Shown: piece by piece, positions 35,313 through 41,059 of the stretch
Position numbering within the stretch: the stretch's first letter is position 1
How the letters are laid out: each line of letters opens with the position of its first letter
From: an uncultured Candidatus Rokubacteria bacterium
GTDB lineage: Bacteria > Methylomirabilota > Methylomirabilia > Rokubacteriales > DASRDR01
Assembly: GCA_963826115.1 (NCBI GenBank)
Contig: CAWGVS010000005.1
Location: 832,001-896,000, forward strand
Direction of reading: 5' to 3'
Length of the DNA: 64,000 nt
The notes under the pieces: model-generated
The model's database searches: none
What the model was told of the DNA's origin: nothing
What the model saw: only the letters and a program-made list of their open reading frames with translations
Program-made: the position numbers and the translations under genes

Positions 35313-36076
35313 GGACGATCCGCGAGGACCGCCCACGCCGTCGCGATCCCGCGGAGACCCGGGACGTGGGACGCCGCCGCGTCGAGCCGGTGGTAGAGCG
35401 CTCCGGTCCAGGGCGCGAGGGGCACCCGGCCGGAGAGCCGGCCCCAGACGTTCCGGGGCAGCACGTGGAAGGCCCGGCAGCTCGCGACGCGGAAACCCGC
35501 ATCCTCGAAGAGGCGCGTCGCCTCGCGGCGGGTGTACGTCCGCTCGTGGTGGAACCGGCCGAGCGTGCGGCCGAGCCACTCCGTGTACGCGTGGCGATTC
35601 GGAAGGTGGTACGTGAAGAGTCGGCCGCCGGGCCGGAGGACCCGCGCGAGCTCGTCGAGCGCGCCACGCTCGTCGTCCACGTGCTCCAGAACGCCGCAGT
35701 TGAGGACCGCGTCGAAGGATCGGTCGGCGAACGGGAGCCCCGGACCGGCCGTCACGACGTAGGGCACCTCGGCCTTCCGGAGCAGGCCCGCCGCCGCGCC
35801 CTTGTCCTCCACGTCGTAGGCCACGACCCGCGCACCGTGGGCACGGAGGAGCAGGCTCGTCTGCCCCCACCCCGCGCCCCAGTCGAGGACGCGCCCCCCC
35901 CCGACCCACGCCGCGATCTCGGCGGCGATCGCGAGGTACTGGGCGACCCCGATCGGGCTCGCGATGTTCGAGCACTCGGGGCGCGTGGAAAGTCCTCGCT
36001 GTCCGAAGTCGAGGATCCGCGCCGCGGCGGCGTCGACCGCCCGAGGCCCCCGCGTCGCGTCGCGCGCCGGGCTCAT
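35309..36076 (-). CDS. Class I SAM-dependent methyltransferase
   Basis: VLDWGAGWG, LPFADRSFD, VLEHV and RVLRPGG motifs. Confidence 0.9.
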   Translation of the reverse strand: MSPARDATRGPRAVDAAAARILDFGQRGLSTRPECSNIASPIGVAQYLAIAAEIAAWVGGGRVLDWGAGWGQTSLLLRAHGARVVAYDVEDKGAAAGLLRKAEVPYVVTAGPGLPFADRSFDAVLNCGVLEHVDDERGALDELARVLRPGGRLFTYHLPNRHAYTEWLGRTLGRFHHERTYTRREATRLFEDAGFRVASCRAFHVLPRNVWGRLSGRVPLAPWTGALYHRLDAAASHVPGLRGIATAWAVLADRP

Positions 36077-36954
36077 TGCGAGGCGCGCGCCCGCCGCCGG
36101 AGCGACCGGAGGACCGCGAGGTTCCGGGCGTCCCCGTCGTCGCGCTTCGGGGTCTCCAGGATCATGGGCCGGGCGCCGAGGCGCGGGTGGTTCAGGAGGT
36201 ACCGGAACGCCGCGAGGCCGATCTGTCCCGCCCCGATGTTCTCGTGACGGTCGAGCCCCGATGCGAGCCCCGCCCGGCAGTCGTTCAGGTGGAACCCCAC
36301 GATCCGCTCGAGTCCCACCGAGCGATCGAGCTCGTCGAGCACGGCGCCGAAGCGTCGGGGCGTCCGGATGTCGTAGCCGGCCGCGAAGAGGTGGCATGTG
36401 TCGAGACACACCGCCAGACGCTCGGGTCGGCGGACTCGGCCCAGGATCTCGCCGAGTTCTTCCGCGCGGGCCCCCAGCGTGTGACCCGCCCCCGCGGTGT
36501 TCTCGATTGCCACGCGCACCGCCCAGCCGTCGGTGCGCCGGGCGATCTCGTCGAGCGCGCCGACGAGGCGCGCGACCCCCACGGCGGCGCCCGCCCCCCG
36601 GTGGGAGCCCGGATGGAGGACGACGAACGGGAGCCCGAGCCGTTCGGCGCGCTCGAGGTCGTCGAGGAGCCCCGCCACCGCGCGCGCTCGCTCATCCGGG
36701 CCCGGCGCCGCGAGGTTGATCAGGTAGTTCGCGTGCGCGCATGCGAAGCGGAGCCCGGACGCGGCGAATTCGCGCCGGAACTCGCGGACCTGGTCCTCCT
36801 CGAGCCGGGGGCCGGTCCACCGGAGCTGGTTCTTGACGAAGACCTGCACGACGCCGCAGCCGGCCGCCACGCCGCGCCGGACGGCGTTCGCGAGCCCGCC
36901 GGCCACCGACATGTGCGCGCCGAGGTTGTCGGGCGCGGCGCCGCCCGGCCTCAG
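36073..36954 (-). CDS. nfo: Endonuclease IV (AP endonuclease), probable CTG start
   Basis: LGAHMSVAGG, HANYLINL, LHPG, IENTAG, DTCH, HLND, DRH and LETP motifs, covering all trinuclear Zn ligands. Confidence 0.95.
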   Translation of the reverse strand: MRPGGAAPDNLGAHMSVAGGLANAVRRGVAAGCGVVQVFVKNQLRWTGPRLEEDQVREFRREFAASGLRFACAHANYLINLAAPGPDERARAVAGLLDDLERAERLGLPFVVLHPGSHRGAGAAVGVARLVGALDEIARRTDGWAVRVAIENTAGAGHTLGARAEELGEILGRVRRPERLAVCLDTCHLFAAGYDIRTPRRFGAVLDELDRSVGLERIVGFHLNDCRAGLASGLDRHENIGAGQIGLAAFRYLLNHPRLGARPMILETPKRDDGDARNLAVLRSLRRRARASQ

Positions 36955-37412
36955 CCGAGCTGCTTCACCTCCGCGAGGATCTTGGCCGGGTCGGGCAGGA
37001 CCCCGCGAGCGTAGCGCTCCGCGAAGCGGATGACGCCCTGCCCGTCGATCACGAACGTCGCGCGGTAGCACGCGTTCAGCTCCGGCCAGTGGATCCCGTA
37101 GCGCTTGACCACGTCGCGCTGGATGTCGGCCAAGAGCGGGTACGAGATCCCGCCGAGCGACTTGGCCCACGCCTCGTGGCTGTACATGGAGTCACAGGAG
37201 ATGCCCACGACCTGGGCATTGGCGGCCTCGAAGTCCCGGATCCGGGCCTCGAAGGCCGGCATCTCCTTCGTTCAGCCCGGAGTCCAGTCAAGAACGTAGA
37301 AGAGCAGGACGACCGATTTCCCTCGCTGCTCGGCGAGGCTCCACTCCCTGCCCCCGATACCCTGGAGCCGGATGTCCGGCGCCATCTCGCCCACTTTCGG
37401 CATCTCCGACAT
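36951..37412 (-). CDS. Peroxiredoxin (BCP/AhpE-like), probable selenoprotein (UGA codon 47)
   Basis: GGAGG-ATG MSEMPKVGEMAPDIRL...VVLLFYVLDWTPG[TGA]TKEMPAF...VVGISCDS...YPLLAD...RATFVID, continuous in frame across the TGA at 37272-37274. Confidence 0.88.
37239..37263 (-). promoter_or_regulatory. Candidate bacterial SECIS hairpin
   Basis: GAU-G-CCGGCCU-UCG-AGGCC-C-GG-AUC begins about 9 nt 3' of the in-frame UGA. Confidence 0.6.
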
Positions 37413-37445
37413 GGCGTCCTCCTTCTCCTCGCGGCCCCGGCGGGC

Positions 37446-38321
37446 TCACGGGCCTCCGGTGGCCTCGCGTGCGTCGGTCCGTCCCTGGCGGCGCCGGGCC
37501 CAGAGCGCGGCCCGCCTGGCCTCGAGGCACTCGTTGAGCCGGCCGATGTACTCGGCGGCCGTGACCACGCGACCGGTGGCGAACGCGGCGGCGAGGCGGT
37601 CACGGAATCGAGGCTCGCGGACGGCGTGGTGATCCACGATGACCTGGCAGCCCGTCTCGCCGACCAGGCGCAGCAGGTTGTCGATGCCCCGCTGGACGAC
37701 CTCCGGGCCCACCTGTCCCTGGAGGTACGTGGGGGGGCCCGAGAGGTAGACGAGGTCCGGGCGCTGCCTGAGAAGGTACGCCGTCGCCACCGGCGAGGCG
37801 GGGCCCTGGAGGTCGGACGCGTGGACGAACCGCATGCCGTCGTCTACGGTCACCGCGACGACGTGCCCGAACTCGGAGCCGTCCTGCCCATGCGGCAGGG
37901 GCGGCGAGAAGCGCACGGTGACCCCATCGAGCTCGACGGTCTGGCCCTCGGCGGTCGCGAGCCGGCAGTGTGGGCTGACCGCCCGCCAGAACTCGCGACC
38001 CTGCGCGGCCTGGTGCCGGTCCGTGGACCGCCGCGGGTCCTTGGCCCAGACCTGCCGCCCCGCGTAGATCATCGAGTCCATCCGGAAGTGATCGGCGTGG
38101 AAGTGGCTCACCGCCACGTGCGTGGCGCGCACCGCGTAGGCCTCGATCCGGAGGCGCGCGCGGGCCAGCGCCTCCTCCTCCTCGGGCGCCGGGGCCAGGC
38201 CGTAGCGGCGCGGCGCCACGGTGGCGCCGGGATCGATCAGGAGGCGGAGCGCGCCGGCTTCGACGTAGGTCGCCATCGACCGCACGCCCAGCGAGTCGGC
38301 CGCGAGCGGCATCACGCGCAT
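37446..38321 (-). CDS. MBL-fold metallo-hydrolase, UPF0282-like
   Basis: MRVMPLAADSLGVRSMATYVE, IDPG, SHFHADH, PHG, HASD.QG and DHH motifs. Confidence 0.82.
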   Translation of the reverse strand: MRVMPLAADSLGVRSMATYVEAGALRLLIDPGATVAPRRYGLAPAPEEEEALARARLRIEAYAVRATHVAVSHFHADHFRMDSMIYAGRQVWAKDPRRSTDRHQAAQGREFWRAVSPHCRLATAEGQTVELDGVTVRFSPPLPHGQDGSEFGHVVAVTVDDGMRFVHASDLQGPASPVATAYLLRQRPDLVYLSGPPTYLQGQVGPEVVQRGIDNLLRLVGETGCQVIVDHHAVREPRFRDRLAAAFATGRVVTAAEYIGRLNECLEARRAALWARRRQGRTDAREATGGP

Positions 38322-38352: not shown

Positions 38353-38841
38353 TCACGCGCGGGCCCCGTCCGCCTGGCGCTTGAGGTCGGCCACCGCGCC
38401 GCCGGTCACCCGGCAGAGCTCGGCCGGCGTGATCGGGAACACCGCGTGGGGGGTCCCCGCGGCCGCGATCACGCGCTCGTACCCGAGGAGGTCGCGGTCG
38501 ATGAACACCCGCAGTGGCCGCGGGTGGCCCACCGGCGGGACGCCGCCGATCGCGTAACCGGTGGCGCCGCGCACGAGGTCGGCGTCGGCCCGGCGGACGG
38601 GCTGCCCGCTGAGCGCCGCCAGGCGATGCTCGTCCGCCTGGTTCGCGCCCGACACGAGCACGAGGATGGGTTCCTCCCCTGCCACGAACACGAGCGACTT
38701 GACGATCTGGCCCACCCCGACGCCGCAGGCCGCCGCGGCCTGGGCGGCTGTCCGCGCGCTCTCCGCCAGGACGATCACCTCGGCCTCGACGCCGAGGGCC
38801 TCGAGCGCGGCGTGGACCCGAGCGGCCGCGGGCGGCATCAT
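38353..38841 (-). CDS. YbaK/EbsC aminoacyl-tRNA deacylase family
   Basis: TAAQAA, QIVKSLVF, TGYAIGGVPPVG and AAAGTP motifs. Confidence 0.92.
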   Translation of the reverse strand: MMPPAAARVHAALEALGVEAEVIVLAESARTAAQAAAACGVGVGQIVKSLVFVAGEEPILVLVSGANQADEHRLAALSGQPVRRADADLVRGATGYAIGGVPPVGHPRPLRVFIDRDLLGYERVIAAAGTPHAVFPITPAELCRVTGGAVADLKRQADGARA

Positions 38842-39200
38842 CCGAGGAGCTCCGGCCGGAACCGGCGGACCGGGGTCGACCTCGACTTGGACGACGCCCG
38901 GGACCGCCAGCCGTAGCGTCCGAGGTCGATCCGCCCGCGGACGAAGCGCACGCCCTCGCCCTGGAGGAGGAGGCGCTGGCTCAAGGCGCCGCTGCCGTCA
39001 CCGCGCCGGCTGATCGTCCCCTGCCCGTTGACGACGCGGTGCCACGGCACGCCCGCGGGGCAGACGCGCATCGCGTGCCCCACGGCGCGCGCGGCGCGGG
39101 GCGATCCGAGGAGCGCCGCGACCTGGCCGTAGGTCACGACGCGCCCGCGCGGCACGCGGCGGACGAGCGCGTGGGCCCGCTTCTGGAGGTCACCACTCAT
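38838..39200 (-). CDS. Alkyltransferase-like (ATL/YbaZ) DNA damage-flipping protein
   Basis: VPRGRVVTYGQVA, ARAVG and PWHRVV (Trp replaces the catalytic Cys of Ogt). Confidence 0.9.
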   Translation of the reverse strand: MSGDLQKRAHALVRRVPRGRVVTYGQVAALLGSPRAARAVGHAMRVCPAGVPWHRVVNGQGTISRRGDGSGALSQRLLLQGEGVRFVRGRIDLGRYGWRSRASSKSRSTPVRRFRPELLG

Positions 39201-41059
39201 GCCCGGGTGGCATCGGCGGCCGCGGCCGCGCCGAACTGGAGCTCCCACAGCGTGCGGTAGAGACCGTCCCGCCGGATCAGCTCGGCGTGCGGGCCCTGGT
39301 CGACGAGCTGGCCGTGCTGGAGAACCACGACACGGTCCGCCCGCTGGATGGTCGAGAAACGATGCGCGATCACCACGCTGGTCCGTTCCGCGAGGAGCTG
39401 GTTGACGGCGTCCTGCAGCGAGTGCTCGGTTTCAGGGTCGACGCTCGACGTCGCCTCGTCGAGCACCAGAACGGGGGGATTATACAGGAGCGCCCGGGCG
39501 ACCGAAAGGAGCTGACGCTGTCCGTGCGAGAGGTTCGCTCCGCGCTCGAGGAGCGGCGCGTCGTAGCCACCGGCGAGCGAGCGCACGAAGCGGTCCGCGT
39601 GGACGCGGCGCCCGGCCTCCTCGACCGCTTCGCGCGGGACGCGCGCTCCGAGAGTGAGGTTCTCTGCCACGGTGCCCGCGAAGAGCACGACGTCCTGGAG
39701 GACCAGGCCGACGTGGCGCCGGAGCGCGGTCAGGTCCCACTCGCGGACGTCGATTCCCTCCACCAGCACGGCGCCGCGCTGCACGTCGTACGTCCGCGTG
39801 AGGAGGCGCGCGAGCGTCGTCTTCCCGGCGCCGGTGCCGCCCACGACCGCGACCCCCTCGCCCCGCTCGATCCGGAGCGACACGCCGCGGAGCGCCCAGG
39901 CCGGCGGGGTGGCGCCACTCGCGTCCCCCCGCTGGGGCGCCTCGCCGGCGCCGGGATAGGCGAACCAGACGTCGCGCAGCTCGATCGCGGGCGGCGCTCC
40001 GCGGCCCGACGACGTCCGCCCGGCGGGCGTGGCCGTGCCCCCGGTCTCCGTCGGCGTGTCGAGGAGCGCGAAGACCCGCTCGGCCGCCACGGTGGCGGCC
40101 TGCATCACCGAGAACTTCGCCGAGGCGTCGCGGATGGGGAGATAGAACCGCTGCGTGTACTGCATGAAGGCCACCAGAACGCCGAACGTCAGAGTGCCGT
40201 CGAGGATCTCGACGCCGCCCCACCAGAGGAGGGCGGCAACGCCGATGGACCCGACCGCCTCGGCGACGGCGTACAGCGTCGAGTCGAGCCCCATGCGCCG
40301 GAACTGCGCTTGCCGGTAGCGGTCGTTCAGGTCGCCGAGCTCGCGGGCGCGCGCGGCCTCGCGCCCGAAGAGCTGGAGCACGGCCATGCCCGCGAGGGTC
40401 TCCTGGAGTTCGGCGTTCAGGTGGGCGAGCCGCGCCCGGACGTCCCGGTACGCCCGGCGCACCGGGACGCTCAGGACGAGCGCGACCGCGATCAGGAGCG
40501 GCAGTACGGCGAACGTGATCAGCGTGAGCCGGAGGTGGAGGAGCAGCATGACCGCGATCACGCCGGCGAGCGTGACGACGTCGCCCACGATGGCGACGAC
40601 GCCCGACGTGAAGACCTCGCCGATCGCCTCCACGTCGCCCAGGATCCGCGTCATCACGCGCCCGACCGGGTTGCGGTCGAAGAACGCCGCCGGCAGGCGC
40701 TGCGCGTGGGCGAAGAGGGCCGCCCGGATGTCGTGGACCACCCGCTGCCCGGTCCAGGTCGCCAGATAGATCTGGCCGTAGCGGAGGCCGTACTGGACGG
40801 CGAGCGTCAGGAAGAACAGGGCCACGACCCGGGAGAGCCCCGGCCAGTCGCCCTTGAGGATGTGCTCGTCGATGGCCACCTTCACGAGATACGGCTGGAC
40901 GAGGTCCACCGCGGCCAGGAGCGGGAACAGGGCCGCCGACAGGGCGACCGCGCCCCGGTACGGCCGCGTGTAGCCCCAGACCCGCCGCGCGAGCCGCGCG
41001 TCGTAGACGCGACCGACGGTGTCGTCGTCCTCCCCTGCCCCGCCCGCCCGCCGGCTCAT
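39197..41059 (-). CDS. ABC exporter fused permease/ATPase (MdlB-like)
   Basis: Six TM, GGTGAGKTT, degenerate signature LSHGQ, LDEATSSVD and IAHR. Confidence 0.93.
   Translation of the reverse strand: MSRRAGGAGEDDDTVGRVYDARLARRVWGYTRPYRGAVALSAALFPLLAAVDLVQPYLVKVAIDEHILKGDWPGLSRVVALFFLTLAVQYGLRYGQIYLATWTGQRVVHDIRAALFAHAQRLPAAFFDRNPVGRVMTRILGDVEAIGEVFTSGVVAIVGDVVTLAGVIAVMLLLHLRLTLITFAVLPLLIAVALVLSVPVRRAYRDVRARLAHLNAELQETLAGMAVLQLFGREAARARELGDLNDRYRQAQFRRMGLDSTLYAVAEAVGSIGVAALLWWGGVEILDGTLTFGVLVAFMQYTQRFYLPIRDASAKFSVMQAATVAAERVFALLDTPTETGGTATPAGRTSSGRGAPPAIELRDVWFAYPGAGEAPQRGDASGATPPAWALRGVSLRIERGEGVAVVGGTGAGKTTLARLLTRTYDVQRGAVLVEGIDVREWDLTALRRHVGLVLQDVVLFAGTVAENLTLGARVPREAVEEAGRRVHADRFVRSLAGGYDAPLLERGANLSHGQRQLLSVARALLYNPPVLVLDEATSSVDPETEHSLQDAVNQLLAERTSVVIAHRFSTIQRADRVVVLQHGQLVDQGPHAELIRRDGLYRTLWELQFGAAAAADATRA

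Follow-up and report, generated by a model that had tools for sequence, protein, structure and literature searches.

The window analysed here, a 64,000-nucleotide (nt) stretch of contig CAWGVS010000005.1 (assembly GCA_963826115.1, positions 832,001 to 896,000 of the forward strand) from an uncultured Candidatus Rokubacteria bacterium, carries on its minus strand a peroxiredoxin gene of 153 codons with an in-frame UGA at codon 47. Comparison with orthologs from across the phylum indicates that UGA47 very probably encodes selenocysteine (Sec) in a functional peroxiredoxin, a degree of confidence that concerns the residue and not the choice between two downstream hairpins as the element recognised by SelB. 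The source genome, here G000, is a metagenome-assembled genome (MAG) of 12 contigs, 99.09% complete with 5.34% estimated contamination, and the window lies on its contig C5. The parts of the gene, in window coordinates, are as follows.

37418-37424, minus strand: Shine-Dalgarno sequence AAGGAGG, 5 nt upstream of the start codon, read directly from the sequence
37410-37412, minus strand: start codon ATG
36951-37412, minus strand: complete predicted selenoprotein coding sequence, AhpC/TSA peroxiredoxin, 153 codons plus a TGA stop, on the basis of translation, PF00578, the AlphaFold2 model and the Prx fold
37281-37295, minus strand: active-site codons Val40-Leu-Asp-Trp-Thr44 (VxxxT of VxxxTxxU), with Val for the usual Pro and an invariant Thr44
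37272-37274, minus strand: in-frame UGA, codon 47, putative peroxidatic selenocysteine, aligned with the peroxidatic Cys of 6j13 and 5ijt in a conserved TGA column with Cys codons in four exceptions
37062-37064, minus strand: Arg117 codon, conserved Arg of the Prx fold, aligned with the Arg of YRGLFIID in Prx2
36951-36953, minus strand: stop codon TGA of the peroxiredoxin gene

Translation from the ATG gives an amino-terminal part that reads MSEMPKVGEMAPDIRLQGIGGREWSLAEQRGKSVVLLFYVLDWTPG up to codon 47, followed by the TGA and then by TKEMPAFEAR; the 46 sense codons before the TGA end in VVLLFYVLDWTPG. An earlier note on this DNA had described a strong ribosome-binding site with an ATG at 37412, a frame running from FYVLDWTPG through the TGA and TKEMPAF into a 103-aa open reading frame, and a Val where the motif normally has Pro. 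All three descriptions hold, as the Shine-Dalgarno sequence stands 5 nt before the ATG, the frame is continuous over 153 codons and the first residue of the motif is Val40. A program-made list of open reading frames divides the same frame into two pieces, 37272-37412 (46 aa) and 36951-37262 (103 aa).

The predicted product is a peroxiredoxin by sequence and by fold. Residues 7-130 match positions 1-123 of the 124 positions of the AhpC/TSA profile PF00578 (E 9.4e-39, 132.6 bits against a cut-off of 26), and in a phmmer alignment FYVLDWTPG-U-TKE falls on FYPLDFTFV-C-PTE of the solved 2-Cys peroxiredoxins 6j13 and 5ijt. The TxxU motif, T44-P-G-U47, is thereby aligned with T-F-V-C of both structures, which places the TGA column for column on the catalytic Cys, where the earlier note had put it. 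Thr44, site 47 and Arg117 do not vary among 33 aligned sequences, and we take the Arg of Prx2 with which Arg117 aligns to be the catalytic Arg. An AlphaFold2 model built from a 33-sequence alignment has a predicted local distance difference test score (pLDDT) of 91.3 and a predicted template modelling score (pTM) of 0.89, and all of its top Foldseek matches are peroxiredoxins, the best at full length being Sulfolobus solfataricus Bcp4 (3hjp; template modelling scores TMq 0.89 and TMt 0.86). Prx1-type cores match the model equally well in Foldseek and sequence profiles rank Prx1, archaeal Bcp and AhpE chains about alike, so the protein is not separable into one of these subfamilies by either measure. 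More specific models score below their cut-offs, including PrxU (NF040737, a model of 233 positions; 62.5 bits against 270), Prx-SUH (21.3 against 298) and the Bcp/PrxQ models PRK09437 (49.3 against 140) and PrxQ-Dein (57.5 against 260). The first position of the active-site motif is variable, being Val in the window gene and in 20 of the 30 first-fetched orthologs, Pro in the sister family f2 and in f7, and Cys in f13. Two orthologs from another order of the class (L088 and L089, from genomes G096 and G105) read FYCLDWTPG-U-ATE, with Cys in place of the motif Pro.

The UGA is conserved among orthologs. Orthologous loci in public genomes belong to MAGs of Candidatus Rokubacteria, Rokuibacteriota or Methylomirabilota. 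Among 41 relatives, 36 genomes hold a match, 35 of the matches are full length and 34 of these 35 contain exactly one in-frame TGA; in 29 of 30 fetched loci this TGA falls in one and the same column of the alignment, the remaining locus (G026) having TGC. A phylum sample of 251 genomes, searched at E <= 1e-40, gave matches in 170 genomes, with TGA present in 146 of the 150 matches listed and absent from four, 21 weaker matches lying outside the 150 listed. The four exceptions (G026, G189, G191 and G184) carry TGC, TGC, TGC and TGT. Five more distant genomes from outside the list, belonging to two other orders and sharing 48-56% identity, were also checked, and TGA is found in all five. The earlier note had suggested asking whether orthologs carry TGA or TGY at this codon, and both occur. 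A TGA confined to one strain and followed by a decaying frame, which that note had named as contrary to its proposal, is not seen in these orthologs: within the genus (55 pairs) the median ratio of nonsynonymous to synonymous substitution rates (dN/dS) has the value 0.141 both over the 46 codons before the TGA and over the 106 codons after it, and comparisons with other clades give 0.18-0.28 on both sides. The unpublished genomes G038, G113 and G244 are part of these tallies and dropping them changes no conclusion. A single catalytic column with TGA, alternating only with Cys and under equal constraint on both sides, is the standard comparative signature of selenocysteine.

The same data bear on whether the TGA is instead a true stop, leaving either a pseudogene or a 46-aa peptide gene followed by an amino-terminally truncated 103-aa redoxin that starts at Met51. 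This is how public pipelines call the gene. In a collection of 5.8 billion proteins, 103 of the 120 best matches are fragments of 100-107 aa that account for 61-67% of the query. They carry the names 'alkyl hydroperoxide reductase subunit AhpC' or 'redoxin domain-containing protein [Candidatus Rokubacteria bacterium]'; both of those examined (P0002 and P0081) start at Met51 with MPAFEAR, and a GGAG stands just before the corresponding ATG at 37260-37262. The GGAG, however, abuts that ATG without a spacer, and the truncated product would be devoid of β-strands 1-3 and of the whole active-site loop. Together with purifying selection that is as strong on the 46 upstream codons as on those downstream, and with a TGA held at one exact column in 146 of the 150 listed orthologs, this makes a true stop very unlikely. 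The truncation by annotation pipelines anticipated in the earlier note is thus widespread, and its description of the selenoprotein as hidden holds for annotation, although not for the kind of protein, since Sec-containing peroxiredoxins are already known. A further 15 of the 120 best matches are 155-aa forms, of which six were examined and comprise five Cys forms, reading TPGCSTC, and one form with Arg at the site (P0078). Full-text literature on selenocysteine in Rokubacteria and on selenoproteins of Methylomirabilota, in the portions accessible to us, yielded no description of the window gene.

The genome encodes the machinery that Sec insertion would draw on. Genes for selA (C8:83378-84475; SelA 503.7 bits) and selB (C8:81424-83304; SelB 347.8 bits, above cut-off) cluster on contig C8 with a tRNA-Sec of anticodon UCA (selC; C8:85946-86039), and selD lies on contig C5 with an in-frame TGA of its own within SHGAG-U-ACK. 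All four genes, whose presence the earlier note had made a test of its proposal, score above curated cut-offs. TGA also serves as the ordinary stop codon of both the peroxiredoxin gene and the gene upstream, so the genetic code is not reassigned. Besides SelD, six thioredoxin-fold genes of G000 bear one in-frame TGA at the position of a redox motif.

C6:536857-537309, minus strand: thioredoxin-fold TGA gene with FNGP-U-IKE
C6:536414-536719, minus strand: thioredoxin-fold TGA gene with FFWATW-U-PDC, in tandem with and about 140 nt from the FNGP-U-IKE gene
C5:1679085-1679477, plus strand: thioredoxin-fold TGA gene with FAPT-U-VAN
C6:759080-759391, minus strand: thioredoxin-fold TGA gene with SADW-U-PFC
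C6:242054-242338, plus strand: thioredoxin-fold TGA gene with TWASW-U-GC
C2:160747-161040, minus strand: thioredoxin-fold TGA gene with FWATW-U-PYC

The genome therefore looks rich in selenoproteins. According to a 2026 review (PMC13188914), one Methylomirabilota MAG is predicted to hold 63 selenoprotein genes, and the window gene may already be among the source lists of those predictions.

Read-through of the UGA by another route, with Trp, Cys or Arg inserted by a near-cognate tRNA or under a reassigned code, is a further alternative. The database form P0078, from a 615-nt contig, does have Arg at the site. Against such read-through stand the use of TGA as a terminator in this very gene and its upstream neighbour, the full Sec machinery with a Sec-type SelD, the location of the codon at a redox-catalytic Cys site for which Cys is the only alternative seen in genomes, and two conserved hairpins downstream of the codon; we regard it as highly improbable. 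P0078 itself reads TPG-R-STC and would be one base from TGA if its codon is CGA or AGA; it may represent a non-functional allele or an error of assembly.

A sequencing or assembly error in a single MAG could be entertained for a genome with 5.34% estimated contamination, but this codon recurs in considerably more than a hundred genomes that were assembled independently, and also in a soil-metagenome contig of separate origin, and we give such an error next to no weight; as judged from the comparative data it is in practice refuted. The soil-metagenome contig (X2, record 15), which is DNA of a relative with 22 differences, reads across the codon and has the same TGA. Four public runs, with thin cover, contain nothing that differs at 37272-37274, so that the TGC or TGT reads which the earlier note had considered damaging to its case were not seen in them. 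Contigs from RNA libraries (X18 and X20) cover 37185-37500 in pieces and also show no other letter at the codon.

At UGA47, SelB with Sec-tRNA(Sec) would be recruited by RNA structure lying just downstream within the coding sequence, and Sec would be inserted in place of termination. Two adjoining hairpins are conserved in this region.

37223-37258, minus strand: hairpin H1, with a 9-bp conserved lower stem, a bulged U and a clade-specific upper stem
37239-37242, minus strand: H1 apical loop GAUC, 29 nt past the UGA
37201-37219, minus strand: hairpin H2, with a 7-bp stem and a loop 59 nt past the UGA
37208-37212, minus strand: H2 loop GGUCG

The earlier note had placed a hairpin at 37239-37263. 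That interval contains the 5' arm and the loop of H1, but the conserved element is longer and is adjoined by H2, which was seen after extending the ortholog alignment to +165 nt. Two other pairings were considered and rejected. As a self-contained element, the short hairpin at 37239-37263 has GAG/GAA wobble and CGN wobble partners that vary, and it cannot form in f2. A helix proposed by RNAalifold between GGC just upstream of the UGA and GCC downstream shows no variation and would be inside the ribosome during decoding of the UGA.

H1 begins 13 nt past the UGA, and about 13 nt past the decoded codon is where mRNA exits the ribosome. Among 29 Sec forms 99.2% of the 261 cells of its lower stem are paired, with nine of nine pairs in 27 of the 29; in an enlarged set of 87 distinct sequences the figure is 97.7%, against 30.5-54.8% for 3' partners slid out of register. 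One pair is compensatory (G-C in 19, C-G in 9, other in 1) and joins the synonymous wobble positions of Pro52 and Ala63, and the neighbouring Ala53 is GCC in 29 of 30 sequences, the lowest wobble entropy among 32 four-fold columns. L050, from the unpublished genome G038, is among the 29 rows and is the only f2 row with the G-C state of this pair; the enlarged set leaves it out. The upper part and loop of H1 vary by clade, the central 17 nt occurring in 67 versions among the 87 sequences.

H2 is conserved to a similar degree, being 98.5% paired in the 29 sequences and 98.9% in the 87, against 14.6-44.0% for slid 3' partners. It too contains one compensatory pair (A-U in 15, G-C in 11, G-U in 1, other in 2), and none of 500 shuffles of the 29 sequences reaches the covariation score observed for the two hairpins. 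The 3' base of the covarying pair in H2 is a Gly wobble position, at which GGT is found in 17 of 30 sequences compared with 17 of 338 at other Gly columns, and the coupling is of ACC with GGT in 16 sequences and of GCC with GGC in 11. This coupling of the rare GGT to ACC shows selection on H2 at the level of the RNA, beyond what protein coding accounts for. In 86 of the 87 sequences the loop of H2 begins with GGU. In the window genus, AAGGAGAUGCC just past the UGA is complementary to GGCAUCUCCU just past H2 (window 37196-37268, minus strand), a pairing that competes with H2 in free mRNA. The ribosome covers about the first 12 nt past the UGA, so this pairing could not form during decoding.

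Which hairpin recruits SelB is less certain than the identity of the residue. The review PMC13188914 describes bacterial Sec insertion sequence (bSECIS) elements by an apical loop of 3-9 nt on a stem of 4-16 bp, a minimum free energy of -7.5 kcal/mol or below, G in the first two loop positions with G[G|U]N preferred, and a distance of 16-37 nt from UGA to loop. H1 of the window gene falls within all four, with a 4-nt loop (GAUC) that has G first, a distance of 29 nt and -27.0 kcal/mol; H2, with a 5-nt loop on a 7-bp stem, has the appropriate shape and a loop that fits G[G|U]N. Unlike the consensus, the loop of H1 varies among orthologs and that of H2 lies at 59 nt. The main alternative is that H1 alone acts as a SECIS at canonical distance, H2 being unrelated mRNA structure involved in stability or pausing, or else a side effect of the conserved QV[VL]GIS coding. 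This would be in keeping with the position of the H1 loop inside the usual range (27-30 nt from the UGA among Sec forms), with a near-invariantly paired lower stem whose compensatory change joins two synonymous sites, and with H2 loop bases that are for the most part set by the invariant codons for Gln and Val. The apical loop of H1 is not conserved, however, and H2 bears the mark of RNA-level selection described above. The f13 orthologs keep H2 in register with seven of seven pairs and a GGUGC loop, although their H1 region forms only five of nine pairs and folds differently. Other selenoprotein genes of G000 moreover have loops of the G[G/U] type that resemble H2 and not H1: hairpins 16-20 nt past the UGA in five of its seven other TGA-bearing genes have loops GGA, UGGAC, AGUUG, GGUCU and AGUUG, and four of the six thioredoxin-fold genes have a small G[G/U]-type loop at that distance. 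We consider action by H1 alone a sizeable though rather doubtful possibility; it concerns the recoding signal only and is compatible with Sec at UGA47. In L088 and L089 another, perfect 9-bp hairpin starts 3 nt past the UGA, and H2 is kept.

Our data are also consistent with a composite signal, in which folded H1 would act as a structured spacer and H2 would present the SelB-binding loop. Once H1 is folded, about 13 single-stranded nt, a 3-nt linker and 7 stem nt would separate the UGA from the H2 loop, or about 23 nt in all. As this shortens the 59 nt to a distance inside the usual range, we lean towards the composite signal and would give the assignment of these roles to H2 and H1 about an even chance. 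The broader proposal, that a distal SelB element reached by the folding away of about 36 nt in H1 defines a distinct composite class of bacterial SECIS, is more tentative and falls somewhat short of even. The review (PMC13188914) notes that some putative bSECIS elements fail the consensus, implying further classes, and the two covarying hairpins offer a concrete candidate for a bSECIS outside the consensus model. A limited literature search that included the accessible portion of PMC13188914 found no description of a fold-away arrangement, which is no proof of absence.

Several observations weigh against the interpretation of the gene as a selenoprotein recoded through conserved RNA structure. 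The organism is uncultivated, and Sec insertion and read-through of the UGA are predicted here from sequence comparison. SelA is found in 36 of the 41 relatives; the five genomes without a match (G024, G025, G029, G032 and G038) are 89-100% complete and all have the TGA form, and four of the five are also without a selB match. As all five hold a selD with an in-frame TGA, and as selA, selB and selC are adjacent on one contig in G000, the gaps probably stem from one contig that was left unbinned in each of these MAGs. No RNA-library contig reaches 31 nt beyond the codon in both directions, and carry-over of DNA is possible, for which reason these contigs are not counted as evidence of expression. 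Val40 in place of Pro departs from the PxxxTxxU motif that the review PMC13188914 calls highly conserved, although its tabulated family definition is TxxU, without the Pro. As to RNA structure, the local fold of the single sequence has z = -1.41, with 17 of 200 shuffles folding as well in this G+C-rich context; the support for structure is the comparison between genomes and not folding energy. An Rfam scan of 36900-37500 with E up to 10 gave no match, and to our knowledge Rfam holds no general bacterial SECIS model, so the null match says little. The earlier note had suggested folding in the manner of bSECISearch, and H1 of the window gene conforms on every count; under strict criteria H1 does so in only 14 of the 29 Sec forms, again 14 of 29 for G in the first two loop positions, or in 23 of 29 when the pair closing the loop is allowed to open. 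The distance of H2, 59 nt, lies beyond the 16-37 nt given in PMC13188914. The invariance of the H2 loop is weak evidence, because the invariant Gln67-Val68 codons fix most of its bases, two of the three in GGU being set by the Val codon. Three f7 orthologs are without H2 (two to three of seven pairs) and instead form a hairpin nearer to the UGA, whose UGG loop lies about 20 nt past that codon.

The Cys forms, too, do not simply lose the hairpins. L047 retains seven of nine pairs in H1 and seven of seven in H2, L090 and L091 retain eight and seven of nine in H1 and five of seven in H2, and in L092 both stems are intact but the H2 loop has become GCUAC. Each of the three Cys lineages has damage to one element or more, although the numbers are small. 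None of the checks that were run on the points which the earlier note named as refuting went against its proposal of a 153-aa selenoprotein, and this remains the interpretation that we favour.

The direction of change between Sec and Cys was considered with a maximum-likelihood tree of 42 sequences, comprising 34 Sec forms and 8 Cys forms, the latter including four 155-aa database Cys forms; other database forms were left out. The tree needs three changes of state, its Cys forms all stand in shallow f2 branches, and every deep lineage (f13, f7, f1 and f2) is a Sec form. Since Sec is found in all deep lineages wherever the root lies among them, the simplest reading is that Sec is ancestral and that about three Sec-to-Cys replacements occurred later. 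SelA is still present in three of the four Cys-form genomes, the fourth being 78% complete, which indicates that the switches to Cys did not follow loss of the Sec trait. For peroxiredoxin, Zhang et al. 2006 (PMC1794560) report five Cys-to-Sec events and no Sec-to-Cys event; the trend here is the opposite, with Cys forms that look derived from Sec. Sec at the peroxidatic site would accordingly be old, having persisted in at least three orders of the class, and its replacement by Cys represents the less commonly reported direction.

The fold and the conserved Thr44, Sec47 and Arg117 suggest a catalytic cycle in which the selenolate would attack the peroxide to give a selenenic acid. The oxidised Sec would then be reduced directly by an external thiol reductant in a '1-Sec' mechanism. 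This is considered the most likely route for the window enzyme because a conserved resolving Cys was not found in the alignment of fetched orthologs. Cys73 and Cys115 are present in the window's genus, other family members are without one or both, and the ortholog L045 is without any Cys. BCP/PrxQ proteins have a resolving Cys at position +5; here +5 from Sec is Pro52. The window gene also does not contain a UxxC motif, reading U-T-K-E. With U-S-[TK]-C, the f2 orthologs combine TxxU with UxxC, and for these relatives an internal selenenylsulfide may be an alternative.

The window protein is a new representative of an established family of Sec-containing peroxiredoxins whose peculiarities are the VxxxTxxU motif, the want of a conserved resolving Cys and the two hairpins. 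In PMC13188914 and PMC1794560 the Prx selenoprotein family is defined by PF00578 with a TxxU motif, and the window gene resembles it in its AhpC/TSA domain, a UGA three residues past the Thr, the conserved Arg, a hairpin in the coding sequence past the UGA and the occurrence of Cys homologs alongside. It differs in the first motif position, which is Val in its own family, Pro in the sister family and Cys in f13, in the compact length of 153 aa and in its two-hairpin structure. The UxxC selenoproteins among Prx-like thiol:disulfide oxidoreductases differ from the window gene in that motif, which the f2 orthologs do have. PrxU of the Eubacterium acidaminophilum type (NF040737) is likewise a selenocysteine peroxiredoxin dependent on a thiol reductant, but at 62.5 against 270 bits the window protein belongs to a different subfamily; the E. 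acidaminophilum enzyme is the experimentally verified Sec-containing peroxiredoxin. BCP/PrxQ and archaeal Bcp proteins provide the best full-length structural match in Bcp4 (3hjp), and a Cys-type Bcp paralog in G000 itself, which reads FYPKDDTPGCTKEAC, has the TPG-[C/U]-TKE string in common with the window protein. Unlike them, the window protein is without Cys at +5 and reaches only 49.3 bits against the NCBIfam Bcp cut-off of 140.

The gene stands in a co-oriented row that runs from an ABC exporter through an MGMT-type DNA-binding protein, a YbaK-type editing domain and a 291-aa protein to the Sec-containing peroxiredoxin and an endonuclease IV-like protein. Three of its neighbours have the following positions.

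38838-39248, minus strand: MGMT DNA-binding-domain gene, upstream
37446-38321, minus strand: gene for the 291-aa metallo-β-lactamase-fold protein, PRK04286-like, 33 nt upstream of the peroxiredoxin gene and co-oriented
36073-36912, minus strand: endonuclease IV-like gene (AP_endonuc_2, E 2.7e-51), downstream and co-oriented

The 291-aa gene is the only tightly linked neighbour, being syntenic at 29 of 30 loci and at three of three further loci of the same order, compared with none of five loci from other orders. It accompanies Cys forms too and is therefore not Sec-specific. Its product has a SHFHADH motif, scores below cut-off against both Lactamase_B_2 (E 3.7e-5) and the NCBIfam 'hypothetical protein' model PRK04286 (209 bits), and yields a model (pLDDT 86.9) with only generic metallo-β-lactamase fold matches, best at a template modelling score of 0.5-0.6; no functional link to the peroxiredoxin is drawn from these structure matches. 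The endonuclease IV-like gene is syntenic at 17 of 30 loci and the MGMT gene is found at only one of 30, the upstream flanks being mostly too short to reach it. The DNA-repair type of the flanking genes is a weak hint of a damage-defence neighbourhood.

For the study of selenoproteins, the two-hairpin structure is the only part of these findings that could change current models. If the SelB element is indeed distal, the composite class would escape search models built on 16-37 nt, which would help to explain missed genes and would alter the design of search tools; the rest would be unsurprising to a selenoprotein specialist. For the organisms themselves, an enzyme present in most sampled genomes of a phylum widespread in soil and groundwater appears in public databases only as a 103-aa piece that lacks the active site. 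Because of this fragmentary annotation, the enzyme is undercounted in analyses of the oxidative-stress capacity and of the selenium use of these bacteria.

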